From Psammoneis japonica (taxonomy: Eukaryota): DNA of 64,000 nucleotides. The stretch's first letter is position 1; every line of letters begins with the position of its first letter. Positions 1,608 through 44,223 of this stretch are shown piece after piece. Location: NCBI GenBank assembly GCA_008632985.1, contig QPGO01000027.1, positions 310,001 to 374,000 on the forward strand, given 5' to 3'. A model generated the notes under the pieces. It was not told the origin of the DNA and did no database searches. It saw only the letters and a program-made list of their open reading frames with translations. The translations under genes and the position numbers were made by a program.

Positions 1608-1614
1608 GTGTGCG
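1542..1614. repeat. (TG)n microsatellite
   Basis: About 30 uninterrupted TG units followed by TG units with occasional CG. Confidence 0.95.
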
Positions 1615-3940: not shown

Positions 3941-3996
3941 TCTGCAATCACCAACCGCTGAGTGGTCAATGAAAGTCTGCAATCACCAGCCACTGA

Positions 3997-14094: not shown

Positions 14095-14380
14095 TGCTGC
14101 ATTGGATGGGTGAGGCAGATGTGCCTTTGGGGGGCATGTCACCAGAAGATGAAAAATCAACTGTCGTGACATGCTGTGCTGCTGCAAGTTTTGCAGCCAC
14201 CATGGCACTGCATCACACTCTCAAGGGCACAAAGCAACAAGCTTCTGTGGCATTTTCTGCCATGTTTCTGTTCTCAGCTGGAGGAAAACTGATTGATCAT
14301 CAAAATTTTCACATTTGTGCAGATTGTTTCCACAATGATCAACTTGAGCAATTGTCAATTTTGTCTTGTGGTGGTTTTTT

Positions 14381-15923: not shown

Positions 15924-16632
15924 AGTTGCCTGCATCGCTCATTTTCCCTCATTTAAACTTGTTAAGAACAACTTCATTTTCTCCCTTTTTCTTCCATTTG
16001 TCAGATCTCTGCCTTTGCTTGAGTCGCCTGTGTGGCTCATTTTGTCCTCATTTTGAACTTGTTAAGAACAGCTTTGTTTGTTCCCTTTTCCTTCCATTTG
16101 TCAGCTCTCTGCCTCTGTTTTGCTCTGTTGCTGCTGCACTTGTCCTTTTTTCCTGCTGGACACTGCACAACTCATCTTCCGATCTAACGCCCCCCAACAA
16201 CAATGGCACACCCCTGTCACAATCCTTTCTGTCTCCTGGTTGGGTGTCTGACAACAACAACAACAACAGCAACAAGCATGGACACAACCTGTTTGATGGG
16301 CAGACAGATGAATTGCTGTGACCACCTTGCTCAGATTCCATTTTTCTTTTCACGGCACTGCCATGGGCCAATCCGATGACACTGTCTTGATGACGGTGGT
16401 GCTCAACAAGAACATGAATCTGCGATGCCACTCGCGCTCTTGACAACAAATGCGGGGAACTTTCGTTCTGTCAAGCAACATCCTGCTTGGGTCAGCCACT
16501 TCAATGGGGGACAACGAACAACTCCAAGACACTCATACTTCGTCCATCAAAAAGGTGTGGTGGACATGACTATGTCGGCCAAAAAATAAGAACAAAAATG
16601 GGTCATTCAATGTCATGATACACTCTATCATC

Positions 16633-19809: not shown

Positions 19810-20219
19810 TTTGTTACTTCTTGATTTTGTGAGAAATGTGGTTTTGCTTTGTGTGTTTTGCTTCTTGTGTTTCCGCAACCGATTGAGTCCTGCATCGACT
19901 CTGCCACGTTGGTGGTGACGTCACATGTTTCAGTCACGAGTGTTTCTCCTGCCGGGCATCATGCAGTCACCAATCCTGCGCGAGCAGCTTGGTGATGATT
20001 CTGAGCGGGCATTGGCCATTGGTTCTCGGAGGGACGGCATGCACGTCCGTGTCCGACCGCCCCCCAACCCAAGCCAGAAAACATCATGCAGACTGCAGAC
20101 GACACGATGTCCTCACTCATGGGCCTGGGTGGGCCCAGGGGCCTGGGCTTCCTGAGCATGGAGCACCATGATGACGGCGCAGAATCTGTTGTCCTTTTCA
20201 ACGAGGCTCACATCGAAAA

Positions 20220-23200
20220 AAGTTGGCTCTGCTGAGAATCTTGATGGCGTGCTCTGCCTCATCACTGGCCATCATCTTGCATCATTTTGATGCTGCTGGC
20301 GTGCACGTGTGCAGCAGCGCCACAGTCAACGCGAGGTTCGTCATGCAAAAAAGTCTCCACACTCGAGTGGAGTGCATTTTTTTCTCTGTAGAAATTTCCA
20401 CTGGCACTGTGTGGCTCTCTTTTGAGCTGTTTCATCAGACACTTCACTCAGACTTCACTTTGTCAAATTGTCATTTTTGTCAATGCACTGTGTTGTGCCA
20501 GTTTTTTTTGTTTCAGTTGGCTCTTTTTTGCTTCGTGGCCAGCAAACTTTGTGGCATTGCAGAGAACAAAGACGAGACAATCTCCTGGAGCAAAAAACAA
20601 GAATTTTGACATCCAGAATTTCTGCAAAGCTTGGGCCTGGCCAGCAGCAGTCATTTGGGAGCCACTGCACCAAGACTTGTGCAGCCCACTTTGCAAAAAC
20701 ACACTTGCACCCCACTTTGTGAAAAATGTCACTTGATTGCTCAAACGACATTTTGGCAAAATGCAGAAGTCTCAGCAGTTGTTCCAGAACAACTGCTGGT
20801 GCTCTGCCCAGACTTTCTGGAAATCCTGGAGATGATTCCATCTTCCAGCTCAGTTTTCCAAAGCTCGCGGCATGACCAGCAAAAAAGGAGAGTCGATGCG
20901 GTGCGGCACATTTTCAAAAACAACAATTTGTCAAGGTGAGGTCTGAGTCAAGTGCTGGGCAGCACCAATGGAAATTTTTGCAGAGAAAAAAAATGTGTGA
21001 AAGCAAAGCAAAAGCCAGCGAACAATGTGCAGCGGATGGCAAATCTGTGAAGGACCCAAGCTGGGCATCAAAAAAGAACATGTGCAGCTGTGTGACTCAT
21101 GCTGAACAACATGCAGAGGATTCATGAATTGATGGTCACACCACAAACATGCAATGAGAAATGGGAGCCTTTGGAATTTCTTGTGTTTTTGTGTGTGAGA
21201 TTTCAGCAGATGATGACAATGCACGCAAAGTTTCCTTTGACTGGATGACGGCGACTCTTGGACAGCAAGCGCGCCCTTGTTTTCCAACAAACAGAGGCAA
21301 TGTTCACTTCCCCATCATCATTGTCACCACTCTCCCAGTTGACCAAAACATTCACATGAAATGACACAAGCACCCAGTGCCGCCACACACAAAAACAAGA
21401 AGGACTTTGTGGGAGGGAAAATGAAACCTCCATTCTGGCATCATGTGTCTGCTGTGGAGCAGGTTTTGAAGAAAAAAAAGGTCATTTTGCAAACTGAGGC
21501 AATGCAAGAGTGGCCATTCAACAAGCCTTGGTGGCAAAGCTTGGTCACTGAGATGTTTTGAGTTGAGCATGCATCCTCAAAAATTTGCTGCTCTCCCTCT
21601 TGGATGTCAAACAATGACAAAGAGTCTGGTGCATCATTTTCCTGTTTTCATCATCCGATGATGACTCCTCCTCTGCAATGTCTTGAAGCTTGGTCCAGTC
21701 ATCTTTTTTGCTTTGAGTGCACTTCCTTGAAAATTTTTCCTTTTCTTTTTGCAAGAAGGTGATTCACATGCTCAGCTTGATCCGCTGCTTCAAGCATTTT
21801 TTCACTCTGTTGGAGAAGATGCAACAAGGTTGAGTCTTTTGTGTCATTTTTCTGGCAACTGCCCATGTGCTCATCATCTGGCAACTCTTCCATTGTGTCT
21901 TGTTGTTTCTTCCAGGCCATTGTTTTGAGACCTTGCAAAGATTGTCCCACATGTTGCTGCCAGGACAAAGCCTCCAAAAAAGCCTCCAAGATGACCCGCA
22001 TGGTTGCGACACTGTCATTGTTTTCACAATCAGAAGTTGCTTGAGCAAGAATGGTGTGCTCCTGATGCCCTTGATGATTCTGCATGCATTCATCACAAAG
22101 TTGATGACTTTGAGTCTCAGAGAATGATCTGCACAAAATGCGCTGACATGGAGACAGGTGTCCCATCAACACACCACACATTGCTGGGCCAGATCCAATG
22201 ACAGGTTTGATTGCCTCCACACAAGAAGTGCATGAAATGGTGAACCATGGACAAGAAGGATTGAAAAAACAACTCTCATTTCATGAGTGAGGAAACTTTT
22301 GGACAGCTGAGTCTTGCCAGAGGTTTTTCTCATGATCATTTCCACAAATTCTTTGTCAAATTGACTGCAAAGAAATTGACAAAACTGGGTGCAAAGATGG
22401 CAGACCCAAAATGCACCCAACAAAAAGCCGCTTCAAACTCCATTTTGCTTTCTGATTCAAAAACAATGGCCTTCCCAAGGCACACACTCCGATCATGTCA
22501 GGTGCAAGATGACCAAGATCTCTGTGCAAAAACATGGCCACCGTCAGGCACCCAAGATTGGTTTTCTGCTGAGTGTGATGCAGTCCATGCTTCTTGTGAA
22601 TTGGGCAGAAAAAGAAGCAAAGATTGGCAACAAAGGTTGCGCCAATCATTGTCATGGATGTGATCTTCCTCAACATCCCTTCAAACATCTGCTTTCCTCC
22701 CTTTTGCCACTTTTCACTGCTCCTCTGTTTGTCTTTGTGCCACAAAGCTTTTGGAGCTTTGTGGATCCGTGTCTTTTGAAAGACATGGTTGGAAATTTTT
22801 GTGCTGATGCAGAGAATCTTTTGTGACAGATTTGACTGTGTTGGTGGGAGAGATCAGTGGTGTGGGAACAAAATGTGGGTGCAGAAATGGCCTGGAACAA
22901 TGCAACTTTCAATGAGATCCAAGAAAGTGGCCAAGACAGTGCACAGGATGATGACTTGTTCAATCAACAGCATCCTGTCCCACTCTCTTGCTGTTGAGAG
23001 TTCAAGTGGCAGCCCATTTGAGTGGGCTGCTCAACACTTGTAAAGACAAGCAACAACTTGAAAAGCACAAATGAGTCTCCATGTGTTCACTCATTCTTTG
23101 CACACCACCATCCATGAGGCAGTGTCACCTGCTCCCATGCCCCCTGTTTGACAGCATGGAGAATGTGGTGTGCACACATCAGCCAAAGTGTCCGCGGTTT

Positions 23201-24600
23201 CACCAAATCACAGTCTGGCAGATTTTCCCACATGGTGTCGGAGATGCTTGCATTCTTTCACATTGAATGTGGCACCAGCAAGATTCTTGAACACAAACGT
23301 GCTCAAAGATTTCAGCCTCTTTTCTTTTTTGCTTCAGCAGCACAGCACTTTTTGATTTTGCAAACACTGGCAAAGCCTTGTTTTAACTTGGGGTGAGATC
23401 TGGAGCTTGTTGACCCAGTTGGCATTGCAGCGGTGGAGTCCAGAGGCATGTGCCATCCAGTGGGTGGCATTGGTGGTGGAGTCAGTGATGCGCCACATGC
23501 CAAAGACATTGTCAACAAACCAGCCATCATGGCAGGTGAGATTGGTGCCAAACTCCTCCAGAAGCATGGCTTTGTAGAGCGCACAGCAGAGAGTTGCTCA
23601 TGATGGTGTGGGCAGTGCACCCACAGCAGTGTTGTTGCATTGGAGCCAGGCAGTGTCTCCAAAACATCTTGAAGGCCTTTTTTGTTGGTGCTCTCTTGGC
23701 GGAGCAACATGCCTCAGTGTGTTGGACATGCAAAGAGGAGAGCCAGTTGGGCGGGTCTTTCATTTGGACCAGTTCTCACTTCTTGAGGTCCAGAGAGCTT
23801 TTGAAGTGTGAATTCTGGTTTTGTGCAACTTGGCGCAGCTTGCAATCTGCCCAGATGCCAAGCTGTGGAGCAGGCTGGATCACTTGCTGAAACAACTGGG
23901 GGAAAAGATCACAGCGGCAGGGGCTTGTGCTCAATGGGAGCTGTTCAGAGCTGCCCTTTTGCCAGAGGCAAAACTCTACAAATCTGCCCCCCTTGTTGTG
24001 CTTTGCACACCAGCTGTGCCCTGCGTGCACTGGCCACAAAGATGTGGCCTTTGCCAGATCATCTCATGAGAGGCGCACATTTTTTGCCAGCAAGCTGAAA
24101 TTTTTTGAGCCATGGTGCACACTGTGTTCTTGGCACTGTTTGAGAGGCTGCTTTTCTTCCAACAACCCAGAACACTTTGTCAGACAACAATTTTGTTGCT
24201 TGCCTTCAGAGACAGGCAACCAGCTTCTGAAAAGCGCTCTTTTTGCCTCCACTTGGTTGGGGGCTTGTTGTTTTTGTTTGTGTTGCGCTGATTGCTCTCA
24301 CACACAATTCGCAGATTTGAGAATTGAGAAGAGAGTGTGTCACTTTTCAGTGTTTCAGATTGGAGGCATTTTCTCCAGAAGGATGGCATTCTCATCTTTG
24401 CACCCGATTTCAGCCAGCCACTTCTGCCAGATGTTTTTTCGGAATGTTCCGAACGCTTCCAGCTTGGGCTCAAGACGGCGTGCGCCAGTCGACGAACTTT
24501 TGATACGACTGCGCCTGCGCCTCCGGCTGGTTGCGCTTCCCTCCACCCTCCACCCTGCAGCTGCAGCACCACAAAAGAAGAGACAAAAACACGGACCTTG
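20220..24600. mobile_element. Heavily mutated repeat block, possibly a DNA transposon relic (family not identified)
   Basis: About 4.4 kb almost devoid of TpA and mostly poor in CpG. Only broken C/H/Q-rich ORFs; no termini found. Confidence 0.5.
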
Positions 24601-27084: not shown

Positions 27085-27790
27085 GACGTCTCTGAACAGC
27101 TGTCCAAAGAATCTCGTTGCTGTTCCACCATAAACCTGCAAATCTTTTGCCACATTCACCACTCAAACATCCTGCAGATGTTGGCATCAAGCTCAGGCCT
27201 GCATCTCCGCACTCAAGCATGTGGCCCTTCTTCTTGACACAGCCATTCCAAAGCAACCACCACCTCCTCCACCTCTGGTTGCTGGCTTGCCTGCCCTTCC
27301 ACCAACCCTTCAACTGACACACCACAAAACAACATGCAGACCTAACATGACCACATGTCTCAACCAAGCAGATGTTTGGGTTTTCTGATTGGTGGCTGAC
27401 CACCTGGGCTCCATGCTCCATCGGGCGCTTCGTGCTCTTTTGTGTCTCCATCTCACACCTCCTTTTTGTTGGCGCACCTCCTCTGACTCCCCTTGCTCCA
27501 CCCTGGACCTCTGCTTCTTCCCCTTTCAATGCCCATCTGCCTGTGATTCCTTCTCCTTTGCAACCAACTCCCCCCTGAGGCCTGCTTTCCTGGGCTTCAG
27601 CCATCTGGGATTGCCGGCCACGCTCGCTGCCTGGGGCAGCGCTGCTGCTCCCACTGTGGTCTTCAGAGCATTGGCCATGCTGTCACCTGGCCCCTCTTTG
27701 GTTCAGCATGCCTGACATGCCCCAAAACTCGACAAATCACTTGCTTCACCCTCTCAAACAACCTGCCGCTGTTTCCATCCCCGTGTGACT
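27085..27790. repeat. TpA-depleted repeat fragment preceded by a poly-G run
   Basis: Abrupt loss of TpA relative to both flanks; G-run at 27065-27086. Confidence 0.5.
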
Positions 27791-28713
27791 GCACTGTCGC
27801 TTATCTCGCGCCCGTGTGCGCGGTTATTAGACTGTGTAGGCGTGTGTGCGTGTGTGAGGTGTAAGTAGAATATACGTAGAATTACTACTGATGAGTTGAC
27901 AGGCGGTGGATTTTCCGCCGGTACACAATCTACGCGGTCTACATGGAACATAAATTTATGTGGGTCTCTGAGGATTTTACATATCATTAACATTTCTTTG
28001 GTCTTTAAAATATACATACCCAAATTCAAAAAAGTGAGGAACACCCCGAAACACATTTTAGAATCTGTATAAAAAAAATTTCTATTTAACGGTCCGAACA
28101 GGTTCGCCCCGAAGCGCTTCTCAAAATATCCTCATTTTGTATATAGTAAAACATCTACTATTACCAAAACAGAGTCACTATCGGATAAATAGATCCCGTG
28201 TTCTTCGCGCGCAAACAACACGATAACGCACAACAACACCATGGCGAGAAACGCGAACGCCGTCCCCTCATCTACAAGTTGGGAATACGAGATACTATTG
28301 AAGTGGTTGGACAATATGTATGCGCTGTATTCATGGGTCAAGTTGGGTTTCTTCTCGTTGCTTGTTGTTGCGTCATTTTACTACGTTTTGACCCACGCCG
28401 TGTTCTTTGCTTTGTTGCTTCTGCTCGCGCGCGCGCCACCAACAGCTCTTCCTGCAGGGTATGGCTAGTTGCTCATCACATCGAACCCAAACGTGCGCGA
28501 CCAACTAGCCCTACCCCGGCTAACTCATAGCTTCGCTTTTATTTGCTCGCTCAGCTCGCTTTTGCCAACCCGTCACCGTCTGCACTCCATCCGTACCCCT
28601 TGGTGACGTTTCGTTTTTCATAGGAGTATTTTATTTTGAAGAGCGGCATTGTTGTTTTCAGTTTGTTGTTGGTATTGGTTTCCTTCGGCTTTTGATTGAT
28701 AAAGTATACGACT

Positions 28714-30539: not shown

Positions 30540-30940
30540 CTAGAGTCGAGTGCAATGGCCTGGTCCTCAGCAACAGCCATAGTGTGAACCGCGGTGAAGC
30601 TTGTGTCTCTGTCGTCGCTTCTCCAGCTTGAATATAATCCACGTCTCCCAACCTTTCCGCGGAGAAAAGCAAACACAATGGCTGCGTGACCCAGCATCTG
30701 TAGAAGCAATTATTAAAGTAACAGTGAGACTCTCTTTAGAAGAGGCAACCCCAGTGACAAGCACTGGGTTTGAGACGATGTTACGGCATGGAGATGTCAT
30801 CTGCCTATACTTGCTGTTTGAGCTATCGTGTTGTGCATGTGCAACAGATCTGATGTAGTCAGTGTAGCCCCTTCCATAAATCAAAGATGAAACACAGTTA
30901 ACGATGACTTCGAAACAGCAACATGTCCAATTGTCTTCCA
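30540..30940 (-). pseudogene. Orphan duplicated last exon of the GH3 gene
   Basis: Aligns with 46109-46510 (MTSPCRNIVSNPVLV.., FLRGKVGRRG..FTAVHTM). Frameshifted, with no upstream exons. Confidence 0.75.
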
Positions 30941-33471
30941 TTTTGAATTTGGATGCTGTCCTTCTCCCGAATTTTCAAATGCACACACATCCAAAAAACA
31001 GTTTGCGGGGAATGCAATGCCATGACATGCCAAACCTGGTCATCACCAACATCAACAATGCCATGTTCAGAATGTAGATTCAGAAACATTGGGATCCTGA
31101 ACGGACAGAAATCCAATTCTGTGCAGCAGGAAGAGGTGCAGTTTCTTCCAGTCAATTTTTTTGCCGGATCCAAGATTTCAGTGTGAGAGAGATAAGAATC
31201 ATGGCTGGCATTGTTGTTTTGACTTTTGTTGTGTTGATTGGGGGTTTCCTTTGGCCATTGTTTGATGAGGTCAGAAAGCATGTGAATGCATTTTGGAACA
31301 ATGCTTTGAGATGACCAAAAAGCCACAGGAGAAACATTTGAAGTGGAGAAAGCTTCTGCCATTTCTTCTGCACTGTGCTGTGATGACACAGCACTGAACG
31401 GGGCCAGGATGAGGAATGTCCTTCTAACCACCACCCTTGCAAAGCTTTGCTCTGCAGTCAATGCAGTGCAGTCCACAAGGACACTGCTGCTCATTTTTGA
31501 CTTGTTCCAGACTTAGGTGGCGCGCACATGCCCCTTTTCGCAGAAAAAAAATTTTTTATGCTTTATACAACATCGTACATATTTCATCATTTTGATCATA
31601 TTTTAATTGCTTATAAGTAAAATAAACAGAATAAACTCGAACAAACAAACAGCCAAACCGGCCATGGCTTTCAGTGACCATGACGGCCCACTTTTTTCAG
31701 CCTTATGGAAAATTTAATGTCATGACGAGGACCTCCGTATTTGATATAGTCTATGGCATCAACAACAATAGTGAAAATGCTTGTTACAGGTTGCAGCGCG
31801 GCACAATAACACTGAATCTGTCAGCAACAACAATTGAGCCTCAATTCACTCACAATTTGCCTCTAAGGACCATTTCTTTGCCATTACCATGTATACTTCC
31901 TCAATATATTCGACGGATTCAAGTGTCTCAATTGTTTATGCCTCTTAAACAGTGAAAAATGGTCCGAAGTCGACGCCATTGCGTGGGCTGAGCTACCCTT
32001 CTTCTCACGTCGTCCGAAACTTATTAATCAACGTATGTTTTATTCGATCCGTTGAATCAAAGTTGTATTCGCGCATTGTAACCAAAGATTAATTATGTTA
32101 TGTTAGAGGGTTAATTTATATATAAGAATAATATTTTATACGTTTCTACACACATTTAGACATCTATAAATCGCTCCTCGGAAAACAGAGCTCTCAACTT
32201 GCGGTACAATTTAGGGACTAATAACTGAGTCCATCGACAGTTTCGAATACATGGGTACACGCACAAGACCTTTCTGTATGTACCCATAACAACACATTTG
32301 AAAATTGTTATGTTTTTACTATCGAAAATGGTGCCGCAAGTGTGGACCGCGCGTTTCATGCGAAAAGGGTCATTTTTTCGCGCGTGAGGGCACCTAAGTC
32401 TGGAACAAGTCTTTTGCAAGAGCCAGAGATTCAGCAATGGGGCCTCATGTGGGTGCCTCAGTGACAGCCAGCCTGTGAGCCTGAAGGACTTGTTTTGGAC
32501 ACAGAGGCTGCAACAGCCACAGCAGTCTGTTGAGCCTGCATGTCAAGCCATTGTCAGGATCAAGTGCAAGCTGCACTGCCTTGTGCACCAACAGCCAGCG
32601 TCATGGGCTCCTCTCTTCAACTTAAACAGGAGCACACCACTTTGCAGTGCAGCCAGCAAAAAAAACACAAGGAAAAAGCTCTGTTGGGTCATCAGCCAAA
32701 GTTCCTAGAGATTGTGATTGCAAGAGGGCCGAGACTCAAACACTTGGCCACATGGGTGAAGCATGGCTCCAACTTTGTTTGGGCAGCAGCAGATTTGAAC
32801 AAGACAAGCTGACATTGAGAGGAGGCAGTGACAGTCCAAAGATTTCACAATGAAACAAAGTCAACAGCACCAGTGTTGCATGGCAGAATCTGAGCTCTGC
32901 TCTGCAAGCAGAGTGAGACAGAAGCCACAGACATGATGGGGTGCATGGCTCATGGTTGTGATGAGCCCACCAGAAGCATCATGATGCACGGTTTGTTTTT
33001 GGGTTGTTCTGAGATTGCCGCAAAAGCAGAAACTTGCTCACATGTGCACATTCATTGTGCACCTCCTGTCTGCATCTGAGTGGGAGCCATCTTGGCCTTG
33101 GTTGCATGACAACAGATGCTGGCCTCTTTCAAACATTTTTGAGGTCTTCTTTCTGGCAACACACGCTGGTGTTTGTCCAACCTTGAGGACTTTGCTCATG
33201 AGATTTTGCAGCCAGCCTAGATGCTCTGCCATCACATTCAAGAATTTGAGGGGAAGTTGAATTTGAAGATGTGTTTGGGTTGATGGCTGTGCACATGGGC
33301 TTGTGTGTGTGCGCACTGCCAAGGATGCAGAGCCCAGGTCCAAACACTCTTTTTTTTTTCAGGAAAGCTGCCACAAGCACATGGCACATGACAACAGAAC
33401 TTTGTCAGCATTGTTCCAGTGCTGTCATCAACAGGATGCCCCCAGCTCAAGTGTTTTGAGGATGGAGTGCC
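30940..33471. repeat. Old TpA/CpG-depleted repeat hosting the MITE and the Gypsy; continues at 43426-~43990
   Basis: Composition. The Gypsy TSD tgcc joins 33471 to 43426. A weak minus-strand CPFRI...W.V...H motif might be Mutator-related. Confidence 0.55.
31499..32411. mobile_element. MITE with perfect 21-bp TIRs
   Basis: gacttgttccagacttaggtg (31499-31519) / cacctaagtctggaacaagtc (32391-32411). Flanked by tttt on both sides (probable TSD). AT-rich and TpA-rich interior. Confidence 0.88.
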
Positions 33472-33997
33472 TGCAGCATGCCTCGCCACTGGACAACACG
33501 GCGAGACCGTGCACAAGCCTCTTGTGCGTGGCAACGCAGTGTTGTCAACACGCACCTGGGAAGCACGACCACAGGAGGGCGTGGCTCTGGGTCTCAGGCA
33601 ATTCCAGAAGGATGCCAAGAGAGCATCCGTGTGAAGCACACTGGCCCGTCGTCTGGCCCACGATGGCAGCGTGATTCCACATGATGACATCACTCGTGCA
33701 TGGCGCGTGATGGCTTGATTCGCACGATCCACAATGCGAACGCACGATCGACCCAATGCGATCCAAATGCAAACGAATGGGGATTTGGCAAGATTCCCTG
33801 TTTGCACGATCCCATTTTCTCCACTCTAAACTAGCTCACAATTTTCACAACGACAAAGTCGCAACACATCTTCTTTTTCAGTGCCTGGCACATGCACAGG
33901 GCACAGCAATGTCACTCCCGCACATTGTGCGAGGTGATGAAATCTGCAGAAACGAAACTACGAAATGTTGGTGGGACCGACAAATCTTAAAACGACA

Positions 33998-34428
33998 ATG
34001 AAGAAGCGGATTGAGCCGCCGATTCCGTTCGCACGGCCGGAGAAGAAAGAGCTGCAGCAGGGCGAGCACCAGATGTTCAAGCTGCGTAACAACCCCACTG
34101 ATCCGGATGGTCCAACACACGAGATGGGCATTCCCCACCTTTCTGCGGCTGCATGCGAGACACTCCCAATCTTTCTGCGCAACGTGGATCGCGTGCACGA
34201 AGGACAAAACATCACGACCGGGCCAGCGAAATTTGCCCTCATGCGTGACCCACTGCAGGGCAATGCTCTGATGTCATTTGACAATGCCGCTGACAAGCAG
34301 GCATCCCAAGCCAACGCTGCGCATGCAGCATGCGTCGTGAAGCTAAAGGAAAGCATCTTCCCACATGGGGCAGTGCTGCTGCAGAAGCGTTGTCTGAGGC
34401 GCTTCATGCGCAAGCCCGCAGAGGCTTC
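33998..34428 (+). pseudogene. 5' part of gag of the outer Gypsy
   Basis: MKKRIEPPIPFARPEK...QKRCLRRFMRKPAEAS joins in frame to 39162 (ARDCVARAVEING..QFPP) once the inner element and one TSD are removed. Confidence 0.85.
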
Positions 34429-37400
34429 TGCAGTGTGCGACTGTTGTGTGCACATTTGTGATTACACATTGTTTGTGTGTCAATCGCACCACAGTCGTGG
34501 ATGCGCACAAAGGACAGAACGATCACACAGAGTTGATCGGATGTCGAGAATTGCAAATACGATCGATTGACGATGTTGACATCTTGCGTGTCAATGGCAA
34601 TCGCATCCGGACAATCTGTTGTCACGAACATGTTCTCCGAAAGGCCTTTTGTCTGTAGAAGCAGCACAGAAGCTTTAGGCCATTGAGAACTCATTCGGAG
34701 AAACCAAAAATCACAGAGTAAAATCTAATCTCATAATTTCCACTTTTCGTACACTGTTCTACTTTCGTTTACACTCGTTCTTCGAGCACAGTGCATTGTG
34801 CACACACACCACAGAAGGTAAAAAGCACGGAAAATGAAGATTTTAACTAATGTGCCTTTGTAAATTCTTCTACAAACAGGAACGAATCGCATCAGTTCTG
34901 CTGGAATCGATTTCCGAGCGGAAGAAGCTCAAGCCGAGCAGCACCTCAAGATGGAACGCTGTTTTTCGTCTACCAGACAAGAGGATTCGCTCTGGTGCGG
35001 TCTGTTCCAAGCACCCAAGGATCAAGGGCTCTCAAGCACACCGCATTATCAAAAAAATCTACACCAAGTCATGGTTGCAGAGAATGCAAGTTCCGAGTCG
35101 ATCAGATCCGAGAAATGCGTCTACCATGCAAGGAGAGACTGTTGGAGAGTTTTTTGAGACCGAATCGATGATCCTCGAGTCCAAGGAGCAAGATGGAACC
35201 GTTGAAAAGCACCTCAAGAGTCTCGTGTCTCATGTCTTTCCAAGAATTGCACTTCAGAATCAGAGTTGTCATTTTCAAGACGACCTGAAGAAACCAGAGC
35301 TGCTTGACAGCAAGAAAGCCTCTGTTAGACCCAAGAGGTCAATGATGAGAGTCTGTGCGACCCTCAGATGGATTCTAAGTCGAATCTAGCGGGAAACCGA
35401 GCACTGATTTGTCAGCTGTCACTCGCACCGCAAGGATGGCAGCACCAGTCTACTGTCCAAAACAATCAACTGTTGCAACTCATCCTTGATGAGCTGATTA
35501 AGTTTTGAGTCATCTGTGGGTCGTTCATGACGTCCGTGACGAAAAAACACATCAACTCAGGCTCTGACAGCGCAGTTGGTTCCAAAATAAAAAAGGTTCC
35601 AAATTTGGTTCCAAAAATGGTCTCCCACATGGCACCAGAACAATCCAAAGTGAATGCAAGGTCTCATCTTTGAAAAAAGAATACCCACATCACGGATTGA
35701 AGCCATTCTAAAAATGAACTGGCAAAAGAGTGCAAGGGTGACTCTGAAAGAGACCCAAAAATGCGCCGTTCAAATGGCAATCGCACGCGGTCGCGTCGCG
35801 ACAACGAAAATGCCGCTCGCAAAAAAAGAGATGAACGTCATGATTGATCAGGCGGTTCAAAAAATGCTCAAAGCGAGTTCCTTGAACAAAGAAAAAGAGC
35901 ACAAGGGCAAAGAATCAGATTCTGATGCCCTCAGTGAAGAAAAGTGCCAATTTGATCGGATGATCCAGACTGAATCCGAAGAATGATTTTGGTCTGTTCA
36001 CGAATTGCATGCTTTACTGGACATCAGGAAGCCTAGAAAAAAGGCAGAAATAATTCACACTGGTCCAGGAGTCATCATTTATGTGAACACTTCCTTGGGA
36101 AAGGAGAAAAAAAAAAAGCATCTGCGTGTTCCTATCGACAACGGAACATCGTCAACCACAATTTTGCGCAAATTCGTGCGAAAGTTGAGAACACAAGAAT
36201 CCGCCACCAAAAACTTGGGAAACCAAGGGTGAGCTCTTTACGACTGGTGGTAAACACCGAATTCAGTTCTCACCATGCGAAATTTAAGGCATGCTGACAT
36301 GCAAACAGCATGTGTTGAAAACACCAAATTTTCTTCAGGTTCAAATGATGTGATCATGGGACGCGACTTAATGTCCAGTCCTGCAAGTCATGTTGGACTA
36401 CGCAAATGAAGAAATCTAATGGGAAGAAGCAATTGCCTTATGAAGAATGTTCGTGCACTCTTCGATGCCGATGTTTTCAAGCTGAAAACCGATCACATTG
36501 AAAAATGTGACGCCGTGAATAGAGTCAACAACGGAACCAATGGTCCTCAACTCACATTGTCACGCCATCGATCTTAATCAAGTGACAACTACGGTGATGC
36601 ATCTAACCCAAATGAACACAACCAACTCAATCTTCTTCTTAAGAGGTTGAAATCGTTTTGAAAAGTTCCTCAGACGAATGCATGGGAAGCATCAGTGGAT
36701 CTCATCGTGGAAAATCTGACGCGATTCCACAACGCGTGAGAACCTTCTCCTATCATAGTCTTTGGAGGCGTCCAATCAAAAGGAGTTTGACCTGTTATGA
36801 AAGATTGAAGTCTCAAGAATGAAATTGCTCTGAACAAGTCGCTCTGAGACTCATTGTCTAAAGAAAACAGGTCGAGTTCGACCGCATCCGACACTCAGAA
36901 GCTTAGCACAAGGTTCATACAGGTGGCGCATCCTTTACCCAATATTCAGGAAATACTGTTGAAGCAAGAACGTTTCATACATGCAATCTATTTGATTCAA
37001 ACATGGAATGCCACCATGTCAAATAAAAAAAGCACACGTTGTGCTCACACAAAAATCATGCCGTGGGGAGAAAATGAGTACTATGGACTTCCAATGAGAA
37101 TCTATAGAGCCCCAGATAATTTTATACAACACTTGAGTGAACTCACAACAGGTTTGAAGTTGTCAGAACGACCACATGTGATCGTTTGTGCCTGACAAAA
37201 GTAACTTCAAAATATCACCTGCACAAGTAACAGCTTAATGCGGCATTCAAACGACTAGAACAGTCGCTTAGAAGGTTAACAACAAAAGTCCTTCACTATT
37301 TAACTTGAAATAAACTATCAAGACTTCCATACGTAACGACATGCAATCGATTACAAAGAAAATGGAGGCGATTCAAGCAATCGCAACACGAGAAAAACGT

Positions 37401-39157
37401 AAAGAACACTACGACATCTCGTTGTCATACGTTACTATTATCGAGACATGTAGTCTCAACGATCTCCTGTACAATACTAGCCAAATTCACCTCAATAAAG
37501 GTCAAACGGCAAAAGTACAAGTACGGAACGAAAAGTCTCCGAAAATATGGAGCGTATCAAATCAAAAACTATGTTGTTATCATACACGTATTTCAATATT
37601 ATACGTTACAACGGAAAAAAGAACTTCTGTCCATAGTGAAAACACTTATAAAATTCCGAAATATACTGTTTGGCCAACAGATTTATACATATACGGATCA
37701 TAAGACACAACGGACAAAGTCATACGTTGACAACTTCAGTCCCGAATTAGAATACAACGAGGGCAAGGCGAACATCGTCGCGATAGACGCGATCAGCCGA
37801 CTTACTATAGAAAATTGAATCCTACGACAATGTCCTACCGTTAAAACGGGATAAAGACATTCCCTCCAAATTGTCGGACGCGACATATCATACGAACACT
37901 TTTCGTGGAGGCGAGCGAGATCGAAAAATGCTCATGTCACAAGGATAAAATCGCCTTTTTAAAGGACGATTTAGGAAAAAACAGTGACAGATTGGTGCAC
38001 ATTATACGCATCCACTTCACACTGGCAAAAGACAATCTCACAACACCCGTACGGTTGTATTGTACAATGTACGAGGCAAGACATTAAAACACACATCATG
38101 TCGACACACGAGATGTGCCAAAGATCTAGAAAAAGAAAAGAAAAATGGACATTTGTCCACTTGGTGCACGAAACCAATGCCTTCGGAATGACAAAATGAC
38201 ACCGGCATGTCAGAAAGAAACGTCCAAATGACGATTAAAATCCAACTGACAGATGGTTGAAGTGCAAAAAAAAAAATCCACAATGGAATTCACAACCATC
38301 ACAGGATTGATCATCAAGACGAAATGGTCACAATGTCTTTGACCATCGTTTGTTGTTGCTTGTGAAACGTGGCAGTGCAGCAGAGCAACATGGCGTGTAA
38401 AGTGAGCCTGCCAAACTGCATGAAATCCACAAGCAAGCAAGTGAACGCCACAATTGAGAGTGCACATCAAGCACTGGGCACGATGCCATGCACAATCGAC
38501 ATCAGGAAAAACACTTGCTCCAGGACAATTGGTCCTTGTGTTCACATCAACAAGAACGTCAATGAGAATGCTCGACGCAATGCCACGTGCACACATGTTA
38601 AGTGAGAAACAAACAATGTCACTCTCAAAAGACATTCGGAAATTGGAACGGCCCCACATGGCCTGTACAAAACGACAACAGTCATTGCCAATGGCACAAT
38701 GCAGTGAACGTGGAGACATTGTTGGCACTGTCAACATCCGTCGAACAATCCACTTAACAAATGACTCTAATGTGCAGTTGGGGAGGCGAATGCAGTGCGC
38801 GACTGTTGTGTGCATGTTTGTGATTGCACGTCATTTGTGTGTCAATCGCACCACAGTCGTGGATGCGTGCAAAGGACAGAACGATCACACAGAGTTGATC
38901 GGATGTCGAGAATTGCAAACACGATCGATTGACGATGTTGACATCTTGCGTGTCAATGGCAATCGCATCCGGACAATCTGTTGTCACGAATGTGTTCTCC
39001 GAAAGGCCTTTTGTCTGTGGAAGCAGTGCAGAAGCTTTGGGCCATTGAGAACTCATTCGGAGAAACCAAAAATCACAGAGCAAAATCTAATCTCATAATT
39101 TCCACTTTTCGCACACCATTCTACTTTCGTTTACACTCGTTCTTCGAGCATGGTGCA
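34429..39157 (+). mobile_element. Nested, internally degenerate Ty3/Gypsy element (inner element)
   Basis: 367-bp LTRs 34429-34795 and 38791-39157. TSD cttc at 34425-34428 and 39158-39161. PPT ggggaggcgaa. Broken protease (PIDNGTSST), RT (HPLPNIQEILLK, MPWGENEYYGLPM) and RNase H (YTDHK, GKANIV..DAISRL). Confidence 0.93.
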
Positions 39158-39159
39158 CT

Positions 39160-42100
39160 TCTGCTCGTGACTGCGTCGCGAGGGCTGTTGAAATTAATGG
39201 CTGTGTCTCTCAGTTTCCACCCGTGACGGAGGATGGAGAAGCACCGGCACCATTGCCTGGCGACGAACCATGTGATGTGTTCGAGTGCGGTGTGCCGAAC
39301 GCATGGCAGAAGTTCATGACGCTACAGAATTTTGACCCGTTGGCGCATGCTGTCGCCGAATTTGTGCAGTTCTGCGAGCGCACCGAGCAGGTCGAGCTCA
39401 CCGAAGGTAACCGCGACCAACATGCCAGGGTCCCACGCAAGCGGGGACGTAGAACGGACAATCATGAGTCGTTGATCACGACCCAACCGAACACCCATGT
39501 GAAACGTGTCAAAACTGGACATTCCAGTAACGGAGGCAGCAAGCCTAATATAAAACCTCGGAATGAGGAAGACATCAACACACTCATCGGATCGAAGGTC
39601 GAGGAGTTCTTTGCCAACGCTCAGAAAAAGCGCAAGGCACGCGAGGAGGAGCTCAATCACTTCCGCGACCTCAACTTAAGTGATTCCGAAGACTCGGACA
39701 CTTGCCGACACGACACAGGTAGTTTTAATACATTAGATGAATGTATTAATGAACAATTGAATTACCATCGTACACGTGTTGTAAGCCAATCCCGCAAACG
39801 AGTTAAAAAGACTCATCTTACTCCAATCTTGTTTATAGCTATGAACACTAAACATGGCAAGGGCAAGACTCAAACTATTAAGGCACTACTAGATAGTGGC
39901 GCCAGCAGTGCTCTACTCGACAGTCGATACTGTAAACGTCTGCGAAGCCATTCAACGGCTGAGACAAACTGGACTACGGTAGCAGGCTCGTTCAGTACGT
40001 CTAACGACTGTACCGTTAAATTTTGGTTACCAGAATTATACGAAACTGCAGAACTTAAACATACCGTCCACGTACACAACGGAAAGTTGGGCAAGTACGA
40101 TATGATTATTGGACGTGACATTCTGGAGACACAAGGCATTGATATTGTCTTCTCTAAACAGATGATAGAGTGGCCATTAGTCAATGGAGAAGTACCAATG
40201 AGGCACGTAGATGCTACGGTAGAAACCTCCTTCTATCTTCAAGATCCAGAAGCCTTATCTTCGGAAACCAACCGGATTTCGCGTATTTTAGACGCTAAGT
40301 ACGCGCCGGCCTGCCTCGAGGACATAACGAGAGAGGCAATAGAACTTTCTATAGTTCAACAAAACGACCTTTTGGCACTATTGAAACGCCATGAGTCCTT
40401 ATTTGATGGGACATTAGGAGAATGGAAGGGAGAACCCTACCATATCCAACTCAAGGAGGGTGTAGAACCACACCACGCTCGTCCGTATAAAGTACCTCGT
40501 GCGTACGAAGTTACGCTACGTAAAGAAGTAGAACGCCTAGCACGCATCGGTGTTCTCAAACGCGTTAACCGATCCCAATGGGCAGCTCCATCATTTATCA
40601 TACCGAAGAAAGATTTAACGGTACGCTTTATTAATGATTTCAGAGAGCTGAATAAACGGATCAAGCGATTGCCTTGTCCGATTCCTCACATCCAAGATGT
40701 GCCACTCAAGCTCGAAGGCTTTGTGTGGGCTGCATCGCTGGATTTAAACATGGGCTGTCATCACATCCGATTGGATGCTGATGGCAAGAAGCTCTGCACG
40801 CTCATCTTCCCGTGGGGCAAGTGTGAGATGCAGGCATTGCCCATGGGATTGTGCAACTCGCCAGACATTTTCCAAGAACGCATGTCAGGCTTGTTTGAAG
40901 ATCTGTCGTTCGTTCGAACGTGCTTGGATGACCTTCTCGTCGTGACGAAAGGCACCTGTGAAGATCACCTCAACAAACTTGAAGAAGTCTTGTTGAGGGT
41001 CCAGAAAGCAGGGCTAAAAGTTGATGCAACTAAATCTCATTTCTGTCAAACCCAATTAGAGTGCTTGGGCCATCTGGTTGACAGAGACGGAGTGCGACCA
41101 ACACCTGACAAAGTCGACGCCATTGAGCGAATCGTGGCCCCAACCAATGAACGCGACCTCCGCTCATTCATTGGCATGGTGAGCCACTGCCACGACACGT
41201 GGATCAGACGTTCTGAAGTCTTGGCTCCGCTGACACGACTCACAAGCGAGACTGTCAAGTGGGAGTGGACGTCCGTTGAAGATGAGGCATTCGAAACCGT
41301 CAAACGGGTGATGTCGGATGATGTTTCATTGTCACATCCTGATTTTAACAAACCCTTTGAGATGCATGCCGATGCCTCTAAACATCAATTGGGAGCAGCT
41401 GCATCCCAAGACAACAAACCTGTCGCCTTTTGCAGCAGAAAGCTCAACAGTGCGCAATTAAATTGTGCAGCAACGGAGAGAGAATCACCCGCCATTGTGG
41501 AGACGTTGAAAGAATTTCGAACCACTCTCCTTGGTCATCGTGCAATTGTGCACACTGATCATAAAAATCTCACGCACAAAGCATTCAATGCCGAGCGCGT
41601 CATGCGCTGGCGGTTGACATGCGAAGAATGCGGTCCCGAATTATGCTGTGTCAAGGGTGCCCACAACCCAGTCGCTGACGCTCTTAGTCGCCTTCGGCTG
41701 GCACCCAGCTTGCCTTCCCAGGCCAATCCAGATGTGAAAGACACTCCATCGAGTCGTCCTTTACATGAAGCCTTTAATGCAGACGCTCAAGATGAGCCAT
41801 CTCTGCCTGTTGGCTTCAAGCGCATTCAAAAAGCACAACAAAAGGACAAGCGCCTGCTCTCACGAGCTGAGGACTCGTCCGACTGCTCCATTCGCGCATG
41901 TCGTGGGGGAGGGTCATCACGACAGTTGGTCTGTCATAAAGACAAAATTGCAGTGCCACAGTCATTGCAGGTTCCGCCAACTGAATGGCACCATGAGACA
42001 CTGTGTCATCCAGGTGAGACACGTACGGAAATGTCCATTGCCCAGCACTTCTGTTGGCCTGGCATGAGGTCTAAGGTGCACTCTACATGCGTTGAGTGCG

Positions 42101-42954
42101 ATCAATGCCAGAAGACAAAACGCCGAACGCAGCGCTGTGGGAAGCCACCAGAAAAGGTCGCAGAGACAATTCCATGGGAGACTCTGTGCATGGGTGTGAC
42201 AGGGCCATGTAAAATTCAAAGACGCGGAAAGGACACCTTGCAATTGTGGGCAGTCACAATGATTGACCCAGCAACCGGGTGGTTCGAGATTAAAGAAGTG
42301 TCCACGAAACGCGCAGACGTCGCAGCAAACGTCGTGGAACAAACTTGGCTGTGCAGACATCCATGGCCAACCCAGGTGGTTCATGACCGTGGGACAGAAT
42401 TTATGGCAGAATTTGGCCAGATGATTAAAAATGACTGTGGGATTTTGAAGAAACCCATGAGGAAACGGAATCCACAGGCGAATGCCACAGTGGAACGTGT
42501 GCACCAGACACTTGGTGACATGGTGCGTTCCTTTTCAGTGCAGGGTGTGGAACTGGACAAAGATGACCCATGGAGTGGCGTCCTCTCCACAGTGGCCTTC
42601 GCCATTGGAGCTGCGGCACATGCGACCACGCGTGCAAGTCCCATGCAATTGGTCTTCGGACGCGATGCGGTTTTGTCTGTTGCCCATCGTGCCAAGTGGA
42701 AGCACATAGAAACCAGAAAGCAGAAGCTTGTCCACTCAAACAACAAGCGTGAAAATCAGAAACGCAAGGAGCATCAATGTGCCGCAGGGCAATTGGCACT
42801 CATCAAACAGGAACAATCCTCTAAATGCGGTTCTGACAGCTGTGCAGGACCCGCCAGAGTTGTCCGCATGTGTGACAACGGCACGTTGCGCATCCAGAAC
42901 GGAGCGCTGACAGACACGCACAATCTGCGGCAGGTTGCACCCTGTCACCAGTGA
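39160..42954 (+). pseudogene. gag (3' part)-pol ORF of the outer Gypsy; open but with catalytic motifs mutated
   Basis: Protease LLDSGAS; RT LPMGL and CLDD (for YLDD); RNase H ADAS, TDHKNL, VADALSR; integrase HHCC, DRGTEF, VERVHQT. Confidence 0.95.
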
Positions 42955-44223
42955 GACATTCTGTCACTTGACGGCCCTGATCAAGGGGGAGTGTGCAGCA
43001 TGCCTCGCCACTGGACAACACGGCGAGACCGTGCATGAGCCTCTTGTGCATGGCAACGTAGCATTGTTGACATGCACCTGGGAAGCACGACCACAGGAGG
43101 GCGTGGCTCTGGGTCTCAGGCAATTCCAGAAGGATGCTAAGAGAGCATCCGTGTGAAGCACACTGGCCCGTCGTCTGGCCCACGATGGCAGCGTGATTCC
43201 ACACGATGACATCACTTGTGCATGGCGCGTGATGGCTTGATTTGCACGATCCACAATGCGAACGCACGATCGATTCAATGCGATCCAAATGCGAACGAAT
43301 GGGGATTTGGCAAGATTCCCTGTTCGCACGATCCCATTTTCTCTGCTCTAAACCAGCTCATAATTTTCACAACGACAAAGTCGTAACACATCTTCTTTTT
43401 CAGTGCCCAGCACATGCACAGGGCATGCCACATGCAAGACAAAACATGCACACATCTCTGCAGTGGACACCAGCGGTTGACACGTTGTTGGCAATTGACG
43501 AGCTGCAGGGTGCAACATGCCACATCACTGCAATCTGACATGTGCCAACTGTTGCTGCAACATGCAAAAAAAATTCTTAGAGTTGTGCAAAAAAAGTTTG
43601 GTCATTTTAATGTGCGAGTGCTTGTTTTGGTGTTGACATTTTTGCGCCGACTTTTTGACAAAAGCCAAGTTTGGCGCGCTGGTGTCTCCCCCCCACCCCA
43701 CCCCTTTGCCACATTGTTGGTGCTTCTCTAGCAGTTTCTGCTGTGGTGTGAGATGGCTGAGTGCTCATCTTTGTCGCCATTGCTTTTGTGATTGAAGTTT
43801 CTCATGCAGGGAGATTTTGCCCTTTGAATGGCTTCAGACAAAATGTTCGGAGAATGAAAAGAAAAAGATGTGGCACTTGGGCCACCCCAAAGCAGACTTG
43901 CTGCATTTGTTTTTTTTCAAAGCCATGTTACACTCTGGACCTGTCCATGGTTGTGGTTTGAAATGAAAGGACACTCAGGCGTGACCACGCTTTACACAGG
44001 CAGCAGATCTCAAGAGTCAGTCGTGCAATTTTTGGGTAATGGGCCTCCTCGATGTTGTTGACCGTTTTTGGTGGTGTTTGTATTCTTGGACAAGACTGCT
44101 CGAGGGAATAATAAAGCAAAAAAGTGAGCGTGTGTTTGCCCTCATGAGAGGGCGTTGTCGTTTCCGTTGGTTGGTGGTTTCCTTGCATACCCTGGTCGGG
44201 TCACAAAGCACGCTACTAATACT

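Follow-up and report, generated by a model that had tools for sequence, protein, structure and literature searches.

The window (the whole 64-kb stretch of diatom DNA that was analysed) contains eight blocks from which the dinucleotide TpA has nearly disappeared. Together they comprise 20,171 bp (20.2 kb) with 96 TpA, i.e. 0.48 per 100 bp, whereas the remaining 43,829 bp contain 1,727 (3.93 per 100 bp). The longest runs without TpA inside the blocks measure 2,652 and 1,959 bp, and, given the density outside the blocks, a TpA-free run of 2,652 bp has a chance of about e^-104. The blocks are intergenic, two of them being LTR elements, and the gene regions retain a TpA observed/expected ratio (O/E) of ~0.4-0.8. 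This agrees with the first-pass annotation of the sequence, which had reported TpA loss from repeat blocks and not from genes, and whose list of blocks was reproduced with boundaries agreeing within about 100-450 bp. The blocks, none of which has an assigned strand, are the following:

42..4006: old depleted block, 10 TpA in 3,965 bp
12723..16536: old depleted block, 20 TpA in 3,814 bp
19815..24504: old depleted block, 6 TpA in 4,690 bp, containing the 2,652-bp TpA-free run
27131..27802: short depleted block, 2 TpA in 672 bp
30899..31498: old block depleted of TpA and CpG by composition, with a sequencing-run contig over 30959-31494
32395..34344: depleted block as delimited here by TpA density
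38236..39530: depleted block as delimited here by TpA density
40745..43929: depleted block as delimited here by TpA density

The blocks 42-4006 and 12723-16536 have an inverted repeat of ~750 bp in common. Compared with the rest of the window, the blocks differ per 100 bp by -3.45 in TA, -2.47 in CG, +3.09 in TG and +3.14 in CA, the TA and CG lost being equal to the TG and CA gained. In the blocks ApA/TpT is not depleted (AA -0.46, TT +0.91 per 100 bp), the G+C content is not lowered (0.49 vs 0.47 in the rest), and in the old blocks the CpG O/E is 0.1-0.6. The ratio TG/(TG+CA) lies between 0.46 and 0.51 in all eight blocks, which indicates that both strands are affected. As regards coding content, 37 ORFs of the repeat blocks, with those of the TpA-normal stretch 34800-38236 counted in, were compared with Pfam and none was convincingly matched; the sole matches, both under the curated cut-offs, were Ribosomal_S30AE (35654-35983) and RT_RNaseH (37309-37815), the latter in the TpA-normal part of the nested element B described below. 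The ORFs 17460-19289 and 13398-14390 had no usable match in the protein atlas. In the adjoining paralogous gene no clear excess of changes pointing to leakage of the mutator was seen, with three copy-1-derived sites in the last 50 bp beside the block edge.

The stretch 33472-43425 is an LTR retrotransposon (element A), into the gag region of which a second LTR retroelement (element B) has been inserted:

33472..43425, plus strand: outer Ty3/Gypsy LTR retrotransposon A, ~5.2 kb excluding B, defined by LTRs, target-site duplication (TSD) and tblastn
33468..33471 and 43426-43429, no strand: TSD TGCC of A, read from the sequence
33472..33903, plus strand: 5' LTR of A, 432 bp, TG..CA ends, aligning without gaps to 42994-43425
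42994..43425, plus strand: 3' LTR of A, 432 bp, with the polypurine tract AAGGGGGAG just before it
34429..39157, plus strand: nested LTR retroelement B in gag of A, defined by LTRs, TSD and an empty-site contig
34429-34795 and 38791-39157, plus strand: LTRs of B, 367 bp, TG..CA ends
34425-34428 and 39158-39161, no strand: TSD CTTC flanking the LTRs of B
36900..38090, plus strand: unmutated patch inside B, 5-12 TpA per 100 bp
39091..42954, plus strand: open gag-pol frame of A, 1287 codons, with homology beginning near 39154
39677..40653, plus strand: unmutated stretch within A, 6-11 TpA per 100 bp, bounded by edges less than 100 bp wide
40745..42954, plus strand: hypermutated Tyr-free RT/RNase H/integrase tract, 0-3 TpA per 100 bp, Tyr columns lost
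32412..33471, no strand: old saturated block forming the left flank of A, TpA 0-1 and CpG 0-2 per 100 bp
43426..43929, no strand: old saturated block forming the right flank of A, from TpA counts and a run contig

The nested structure emerged from a tblastn search with a long homologue (P0022), residues 39-179 of which match at 34013-34432 and residues 176-1494 at 39154-42942; an earlier interpretation of 33464-34795 as a solo LTR was rejected on these grounds. The LTRs were not revealed by exact or RY-coded repeats or by three-way alignment, and RY local alignment remained at noise level. Single-copy contigs assembled from a public sequencing run end at 33428 and resume at 43426, thereby bracketing element A, while another contig joins 34425 to 39159 and corresponds to copies of A whose B insertion site is empty. 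Element B contains a degenerate RT/RNase H at 36065-37842. In the frame 39091-42954 the Pfam domains RVT_1 (504-661), RNase H (726-843) and integrase (955-1128) follow one another, and this order, together with the TG..CA LTRs, the polypurine tract and the short TSD, identifies A as a Ty3/Gypsy element. No primer-binding site of element A was recognised.

The gag-pol frame carries nine Tyr codons, all within codons 225-472, and Tyr is absent from codons 473-1287 (815 codons) as well as from codons 1-224. The Tyr-free pol tract noticed in the first-pass annotation is thus real, and every Tyr loss named there was verified: Y611C (TGC, 40921), 556C/557H, 658C/661H, 781C and 1040C. Among the 120 best homologues Tyr makes up 2.9-4.5% of residues, none of them being Tyr-poor. 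The frame was further aligned with 31 metagenome homologues (50-58% identity), and columns with Tyr in at least 60% of sequences, 32 in total, were taken as Tyr columns. The window keeps Tyr at four of the first five and at none of the 27 located after codon 472, where 17 Cys (TGY), 8 His (CAY), 1 Trp and 1 Ala are found instead; 25 of these 27 lost codons are TGY or CAY. The Cys and His outcomes alternate even between adjacent codons (13 runs vs ~12 expected). Within the tract 40745-42954, conserved residues are replaced at 75 of 389 positions, 27 of the replacements corresponding to TA>TG and 14 to TA>CA (41 single TA-type changes), and 6 to CpG decay, while in the unmutated patch 39677-40653 the replacements number 6 of 99, a single one being TA-type. 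Since A>G and T>C changes never create stop codons and destroy TAA and TAG, the pol frame is still open; its product is nevertheless predicted to be enzymatically dead, as the YxDD motif now reads CxDD.

The LTR pairs of the two elements record when the changes took place. The pair of A differs by 24 transitions, with no transversions or gaps in 432 bp, and 22 of the 24 lie in YpR dinucleotides; that of B differs by 22 transitions, again with no transversions or gaps, in 367 bp, all of them in YpR. Both pairs together thus yield 46 transitions, 0 transversions and 0 indels (44/46 in YpR), including 12 sites with CA in one LTR and TG in the other, whereas gene paralogues examined as a control gave 165 transitions and 146 transversions. 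Because the LTRs of single, TSD-flanked insertions differ by transitions only, the mutation occurred in place, after integration. An origin from CG is conceivable for the CA/TG doubles, and the CG/CG and CG/x counts suggest that fewer than one such case is to be expected per LTR pair. From these pairs it was estimated that ~0.74 of TpA and ~0.085 of CpG have been converted per LTR, with only two non-YpR transitions in roughly 359 nt. As a relative estimate from the footprints, TpA change outpaces CpG decay roughly 15-fold and change at other sites more than 100-fold. Part of the YpR changes is attributable to CpG decay. Inside element A there are 6-10 CpG per 100 bp and almost no TpA, and its flanks are depleted of both.

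The neighbouring bases were taken into account by a multiplicative, per-strand context model fitted to the 10 NTAN classes. The fitted rates by the 3' neighbour of the target A are 2.35 (T), 1.51 (C), 0.86 (G) and 0.18 (A), so that the order is TAT > TAC > TAG >> TAA, with TAY preferred and TAA spared. The model is favoured over a context-free one (likelihood-ratio test, p = 4.5e-23), and the order is identical when young elements and old blocks are analysed separately.

As to the direction of change, among 22 listed places at which other copies of the family in the public run differ from the window, 10 carry TA where the window has TG or CA, and one is a CA/TG double. TA is the ancestral state, and TG or CA of the window is derived. 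At 75 related metagenome loci the TpA O/E ranges from 0.59 to 1.18 with no TpA-free run longer than 241 bp, hence the family is not natively TpA-poor; a family consensus itself devoid of Tyr and TpA had been named beforehand as an alternative, and the relatives carry normal Tyr and TpA. The signature of TpA loss was detected at none of the 75 related loci and in none of the 120 homologous proteins, a search biased to unmutated copies because one of its two patterns contained Tyr. Some related loci have lost CpG but not TpA, e.g. L071 with CpG at 0.04 and TpA at 0.73. With the direction given both by the Tyr codons and by the other copies, the core of the first-pass annotation, i.e. local A:T to G:C change at TpA on either strand of mobile and intergenic DNA but not of genes, was substantiated.

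Its description of the process as repeat-targeted, on the other hand, found no clear support. The high-copy MITE at 31499-32411 is untouched, the patches 36900-38090 and 39677-40653 are spared within high-copy elements, and at a likeness of at least 85% two depleted blocks (30959-31494 and 32412-33428) are close to single copy, a threshold past which old copies may have diverged. The tracts are probably selected by a silencing mark or a guide and not by copy number. Episodic action, tract by tract, would agree with the sharp unmutated patches; alternatively, these could stem from later gene conversion by unmutated copies.

These observations make it very probable that an in-place DNA mutator acts on selected chromosomal stretches of this diatom and turns TpA into TpG/CpA. 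Such a mutator would attack LTR retrotransposons and older intergenic blocks in place on the chromosome, changing the A:T pair of 5'-TA-3' to G:C on either strand to give TpG or CpA. It would proceed tract by tract, in sharp-edged tracts which end short of genes and in which the strand outcomes are not clustered. Ordinary 5mC decay (CpG>TpG/CpA) would run in parallel, causing the old blocks to drift jointly towards TG/CA. With regard to the chemistry, the leading guess, to which somewhat less than even weight is given, is that adenine may be enzymatically deaminated to hypoxanthine, which would then be read as G. In the natural targets of ADAT2/3, A34 is followed by G, A or C, and the order TAT > TAC > TAG >> TAA does not resemble this. 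A broader proposal is more tentative still: a DNA-editing defence of diatoms, shared by no fewer than two widely separated SAR branches, in which an A/T editor of 5'-TAY-3' in silenced DNA would work at roughly ten times the pace of 5mC decay, by means of an enzyme other than an ordinary ADAT2/3.

The most serious alternative, albeit an unlikely one, concerns the opposite base of the same pair. The T of TpA might be modified (5hmU or 5fU, made by a TET/JBP-type dioxygenase) and mispair with G, resulting in T>C, the tract-wise process in situ being otherwise identical. The strand symmetry leaves A>G and T>C indistinguishable, and the context preference reads equally well as ATA > GTA > CTA >> TTA for a target T. 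Dinoflagellate 5hmU prefers TpA; 5hmU itself, however, pairs normally with A, so a further oxidised or other miscoding form would be required. In dinoflagellates, 5hmU made by TET/JBP enzymes is reported to silence transposons (PMC11572971), while a thymine modification of this kind was not found for diatoms in the literature searched.

Much less probable is editing prior to integration, whereby the RNA or cDNA of the retroelement would have undergone ADAR- or APOBEC-like deamination before being inserted. The best-studied target is indeed a retroelement, and at some sites the mutated state is common to many copies, e.g. at 38812, where TA accounts for only 145 of 1,434 depth units. Yet 46 sites distinguish the LTRs of single insertions, both strands are equally affected with their outcomes intermixed, and non-retroelement flanks and old blocks bear the same signature; ADAR, moreover, is not known outside animals. 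RNA hyperediting of the ADAR type fixed by retrotransposition was therefore rejected, the changes being on both strands and post-integration.

It is also very improbable that the signature is a base-calling or assembly artefact, in which true TA carrying a modification was miscalled as G or C by a native-DNA long-read caller, even though the signature is confined to probably silenced DNA, where modifications are to be expected. Contigs of the public run at 59-65x, the single-copy level, agree with the window, apart from 3-4 differences each, over the depleted blocks 30959-31494, 32412-33428 and 43426-43929:

32412-33428: contig over the block, 1017 nt, depth 64.5, 3 differences
43426-45908: contig covering the right flank of A, depth 59.4, 4 differences
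30959-31494: contig covering the old block, depth 61.4

Noisy native reads would not repeat three blocks in this way in ~60x k-mer contigs of up to 2.5 kb, although the run (X1) is possibly from the sample behind the window assembly and hence not independent. The individual confirmation by contigs covers these three blocks; in the tract 40745-42954 the contigs uniformly have A where the window has G, both at 41023 (13 contigs) and at 41470 (18 contigs), contigs being prone to drop rare variants. The LTR copies of one insertion that show TG and CA at the same site, the unmutated family copies in the same read set and the sharp unmutated patches within the elements, together with the run contigs, largely refute an artefact.

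Error-prone patch repair by a Y-family polymerase in methylated chromatin, one of the candidates of the first-pass annotation, is just as improbable. A>G at TA belongs to the WA signature of pol-eta, and CpG decay is present in the same DNA; the fit is nonetheless poor because there is not one transversion among the 46 LTR differences and no loss of ApA/TpT, and TAA is the most protected context. A native composition or selection against TpA, without any mutator, might be considered for the old blocks in view of the 37 repeat-block ORFs, none of which had a convincing Pfam match, but its probability is negligible and for elements A and B it is refuted by the replacement of catalytic and other invariant Tyr, by the TpA-normal relatives and by the balance between TA+CG lost and TG+CA gained.

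The only prior report that we could find of TpA-directed A:T>G:C hypermutation is a 2026 preprint on one chlorarachniophyte, Bigelowiella natans, in which the same signature is shown experimentally; the earlier remark that the pattern did not belong to a described system has thereby been overtaken. That ordinary LTR retrotransposons of a diatom bear this footprint too suggests a process not peculiar to a single alga or to inserts of giant viruses, and TpA-directed hypermutation may be a general route of genome defence in marine protists. If the broader proposal were true, there would exist a natural, double-strand-competent, TpA-specific A:T>G:C editor, a mirror image of RIP, so old that it would have shaped the remains of transposons and giant viruses throughout the marine protists. 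As diatoms include genetically tractable species, the enzyme becomes findable, and the features to look for in an assay would be action in situ, preference for TAY with TAA spared, pure transitions, absence of strand bias, sharp edges and a rate ~15 times that of CpG decay. Two practical consequences follow: since no stops arise in the tracts, long ORFs persist and are open to mis-annotation as genes, and dating by LTR divergence is distorted, the divergence here being 5-6% with zero transversions.

Among known systems, RIP of ascomycete fungi resembles the process described here in its saturating, dinucleotide-specific transitions made in place on mobile DNA, in the destruction of coding capacity and in its edged tracts. 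RIP changes C:G to T:A, mostly CpA to TpA, creates TpA and stops, lowers GC, and requires duplication and a C5-methyltransferase of the RID type. The direction here is the opposite, TpA being destroyed at a block G+C of 0.49 vs 0.47, and a dependence on copy number finds no support. Diatom DNMT4 has been described as RID-related (PMC9998398). Deamination of 5mC gives the same end products, TpG and CpA, and is active in the same blocks, but CpG decay cannot remove TpA and is here ~15-fold slower. APOBEC3 (on cDNA) and ADAR (on dsRNA, with a preference for 5' U) likewise hypermutate by base deamination as a defence. They act on replication intermediates, on one strand and before integration, whereas the target here is chromosomal DNA, on both strands and after integration. 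The natural target of TadA and ADAT2-ADAT3 is A34 following U33, i.e. a UA step. TadA/ADAT2-ADAT3 and the editors derived from TadA share this step with the present process, and some of them are reported to act on DNA (PMC10354150). Among ADAT2 enzymes, only that of amphioxus is reported to act on adenine in DNA, and it prefers GAA (PMC10354150), the context here being TA.

The closest counterpart is the TpA-specific hypermutation of integrated NCLDV/virophage DNA in mutation-accumulation lines of B. natans (Mettrop et al., bioRxiv 10.64898/2026.01.13.699255). According to the accessible part of that preprint, two integrated viral regions accumulated 231 mutations, of which 230 were A>G or T>C, invariably at TpA and at a rate of ~6e-7 per site per generation, ~1000-fold above background and in some lineages only; the genome has TpA-poor, CpA+TpG-rich clusters enriched in RT and DDE domains, and an ADAT2-like protein is proposed as the enzyme. 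The same part of the text makes no mention of diatoms, stramenopiles or trinucleotides, and no report of TpA hypermutation in diatoms was found in the literature. Both cases, as far as the accessible text goes, have in common that nearly only A>G/T>C changes occur, at TpA and on both strands, in foreign DNA beside normal genes, and the two systems are probably of the same kind. They differ in the host, B. natans being a rhizarian and the present one a stramenopile, and in the targets, which here are LTR retrotransposons and intergenic blocks instead of viral inserts, the process being known from its footprints alone. New relative to B. natans are the proof of change in situ from LTR pairs, the TAY >> TAA rule, the comparison with CpG decay and the sharp unmutated patches.

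Two classes of DNA can be distinguished across the window by observed/expected (O/E) dinucleotide ratios in 500-bp windows: gene regions, with TpA O/E of ~0.4-0.8 and CpG O/E of ~0.7-1.5, and eight depleted blocks, in which TpA O/E is 0-0.2, TG+CA O/E is 1.4-2.2 and CpG is mostly low. The claim of the first-pass annotation that TpA loss marks the repeat blocks but not the genes is thereby borne out. Of 1,823 TpA in the 64 kb, 96 lie inside the blocks (20,171 bp). The longest TpA-free runs span 2,652 bp (20389-23041) and 1,959 bp (42-2001), the former having a chance of ~e^-104 at the outside density of 3.93 TpA per 100 bp. Losses and gains balance between the blocks and the rest of the window, the differences per 100 bp being -3.45 for TA, -2.47 for CG, +3.09 for TG and +3.14 for CA.

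Since TGA is the only stop codon left in TpA-free DNA, all six frames of 1-4006, 12723-16536 and 19815-24504 are crowded with overlapping ORFs of 100-330 codons; these ORFs gave no Pfam match and could be mis-annotated as genes. An inverted repeat of ~750 bp with internal tandem units of ~166 bp is common to two old depleted blocks (2122-2845 and 13340-14097; 79% identity), its copies differing by 90 transitions and 27 transversions, with 24 CA/TG doubles. A TpA-free block also contains, at 1300-1870, a long microsatellite of (CA)n/(TG)n, which gives HTHT.. and CVCV.. runs in the translated frames. As for the host genes, the organism-named matches of two housekeeping ORFs, IGPS-PRAI (5298-7037; 61-70% identity) and Utp13 (54566-57124; Fragilaria 61%, raphid pennates 53-57%, Thalassiosirales 47-51%), are all from diatoms, and none of the matches approaches 100% identity. 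The product of ORF 60944-61843 exhibits a weak match, under the curated cut-off, to the low-iron-inducible periplasmic protein Fea1 (E = 1.2e-4), and this ORF may be an iron-starvation-type protein gene.

The longer homologue P0022 matches the window in two separate parts (residues 39-179 at 34013-34432, residues 176-1494 at 39154-42942), which indicates that the Gypsy element is interrupted by an insertion. The features of the locus are as follows.

28711-30935 and 44221-46506: tandem paralogous gene pair, 71-81% identical, function unassigned, flanking the whole 13-kb transposon nest
31499-32411: MITE-like element of 913 bp, T-rich at its flanks, whose 21-bp terminal inverted repeats are perfect
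33472-43425: element A, the outer Ty3/Gypsy retrotransposon, flanked by the TSD TGCC; its LTRs are 432 bp long with TG..CA ends, and a polypurine tract precedes the 3' LTR
34429-39157: element B, nested in the gag of A, with 367-bp LTRs, TG..CA ends, the TSD CTTC and a degenerate RT/RNase H

Three public sequencing runs of one sample contain the window sequence (0.63 of the sampled words in run X1), and their k-mer contigs were compared with the window over 30001-48000, where single-copy depth is 50-65; no library type is recorded for them, and the sample may be that of the assembly itself. In a run contig, 34425 is fused directly to 39159, the B-empty site of other A copies. Single-copy contigs begin precisely at 43426, the first base past A, and around the MITE they end at 31494 and restart at 32412, the first base past it. 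The MITE, which lies inside an old TpA-free block, has normal TpA, and its summed run depth of 2,600-5,000 marks it as high-copy.

The pol ORF of element A (39091-42954) is open over 1287 codons and encodes RT, RNase H and integrase domains. The last ~760 codons had been described as Tyr-free, with 9 Tyr upstream; all 9 were indeed found at codons 225-472, and every Tyr-to-Cys/His motif quoted in that description is present in the ORF. In an alignment with 31 homologues (50-58% identity; 32 mostly-Tyr columns), Tyr survives in the window in 4 of the first 5 of these columns and in none of the 27 beyond codon 472; the 27 now read Cys TGY (17), His CAY (8), Trp (1) and Ala (1). At positions that 80% or more of the homologues share, the hypermutated tract from 40745 on has replacements at 75 of 389 residues, versus 6 of 99 in the TpA-normal stretch 39700-40650. 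Single TA>TG and TA>CA changes account for 27 and 14 of the 75 replacements, CpG decay for 6, other A:T>G:C transitions for 9 and transversions for 8, while 11 need more than one change; this spectrum identifies TA as the ancestral state. Changes of A>G and T>C create no stop codon and abolish TAA and TAG, hence the pol frame is still open.

A newly inserted element starts out with two identical LTRs. Over 799 aligned bp, the pairs of A and B now differ by 24 and 22 transitions, respectively, with no transversions and no gaps; 44 of the 46 transitions fall inside YpR dinucleotides, and only 2 outside them, in roughly 359 nt.

States of dinucleotides in the two LTRs of elements A and B.
TA in both: pair A 1, pair B 4
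TA versus TG or CA: pair A 5, pair B 6
CA versus TG: pair A 5, pair B 7
CG in both: pair A 24, pair B 20
CG versus TG or CA: pair A 7, pair B 2

These differences exclude, for the bulk of the changes, that the elements were edited before integration, and together with the replacement spectrum they uphold the proposed A:T to G:C change at TpA. The control, the two gene paralogues at 28711-30935 and 44221-46506, shows an ordinary spectrum of 165 transitions and 146 transversions. If double conversions to the same state, which go unseen, are as numerous as the observed CA/TG doubles, ~0.74 of TpA and ~0.085 of CpG would have been converted per LTR, a ratio of ~15 in -ln terms. Inside A, CpG still amounts to 6-10 per 100 bp and TpA to ~0, while the flanks that received A have lost both, in agreement with TpA loss outpacing CpG decay. 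The two are separable, since metagenome Gypsy relatives (L071, L015, L067, L010) have lost CpG (O/E 0.04-0.19) and kept normal TpA (0.62-0.73).

Both strands are affected alike, TG/(TG+CA) being 0.46-0.51 in 8 of 8 blocks, and the Cys and His outcomes are unclustered by strand: they alternate at adjacent codons (556/557, 699/700) and form 13 runs against ~12 expected. The in/out ratio of surviving TpA is lowest in ATAT (0 of 138), ATAG (0.005) and ATAC (0.008), and highest in CTAA (0.18) and TTAA (0.30). Presuming that the blocks started out with the same NTAN composition as the DNA outside them, a model of independent A loss on each strand, with its rate set by the 3' neighbour (T 2.35, C 1.51, G 0.86, A 0.18; LRT p = 4.5e-23), fits all ten NTAN classes. 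The order of contexts repeats when young elements and old blocks are taken apart, TTAA and CTAA being essentially intact in the young elements. The process works tract by tract: unmutated patches in A (39677-40653) and B (~36900-38090) both keep TpA at its native density of 7.5 per 100 bp and have edges of <100 bp. Because these patches and the high-copy MITE are unmutated, copy number does not seem to predict targeting, and the designation "repeat-targeted" is not demonstrated. The patches may either never have been hit or have been brought back by gene conversion.

A base-calling artefact of native reads is very unlikely to be the source of the TpA loss, as contigs of single-copy depth reproduce three depleted stretches: 32412-33428 (1017 nt, 3 differences), 30959-31494 (3 differences, 4 gaps) and 43426-45908, which includes a depleted block (4 differences, 1 gap). 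The pol tract itself is not individually confirmed, because the window's letter at 41023 and 41470 occurs in none of the contigs covering them. The summed depth of 10,000-32,000 over the Gypsy region implies hundreds of copies. Transitions prevail among their differences (A>G 201, T>C 188, G>A 176, C>T 172), with 157 transversions. At 10 of 22 listed difference places, other copies have TA where TG or CA stands in the window; one further place is the reverse case. Another, at 33314-33315, is the hallmark CA/TG double: a single-copy contig (depth 64.5) reads TG and the assembly CA, and two alleles or strains could have resolved one TpA oppositely.

The hypermutation noticed in the first-pass annotation is thus confirmed and the inference drawn from it supported: a post-integration, DNA-level, TpA-specific A:T>G:C change operates on both strands, prefers TAY, proceeds tract-wise and is much faster than CpG decay. 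Its chemistry could be enzymatic adenine deamination, a reading put forward tentatively, and tracts are probably chosen through a silencing mark or a guide. A miscoding thymine modification is a less likely source of the same changes. Pol-eta-type error-prone repair, once listed as a candidate, fits poorly, because transversions are absent, ApA is retained and TAA is protected.

The process had not been recognised as a described system, but the same TpA signature is reported for Bigelowiella natans (bioRxiv 10.64898/2026.01.13.699255), the single paper with this signature that a full-text search brought up. According to the text of this preprint, 231 of 302 nuclear mutations in mutation-accumulation lines fell in integrated giant-virus and virophage regions, and 230 of these 231 were A>G or T>C, all 230 at TpA; the mutation rate was ~6e-7, with mutations in some lines only. 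The genome contains 124 TpA-poor, CpA+TpG-rich clusters, its TpA-poor CDS show an enrichment of RT and DDE domains, and the enzyme is proposed to be an ADAT2-like protein. Diatoms, stramenopiles and trinucleotide context are not mentioned in that text, and our literature search found no report of TpA hypermutation in diatoms. Amphioxus ADAT2 is described as a deaminase of DNA adenine that favours GAA (PMC10354150), unlike the TAY preference seen here, and diatoms have the RID-related DNMT4, given as of unknown function (PMC9998398). The process in P. japonica is probably related to that of B. natans and, given the priority of the preprint, does not count as a new type of system; the host here is a diatom, not Bigelowiella, and what is new is the host lineage, the target class and several properties without earlier report.
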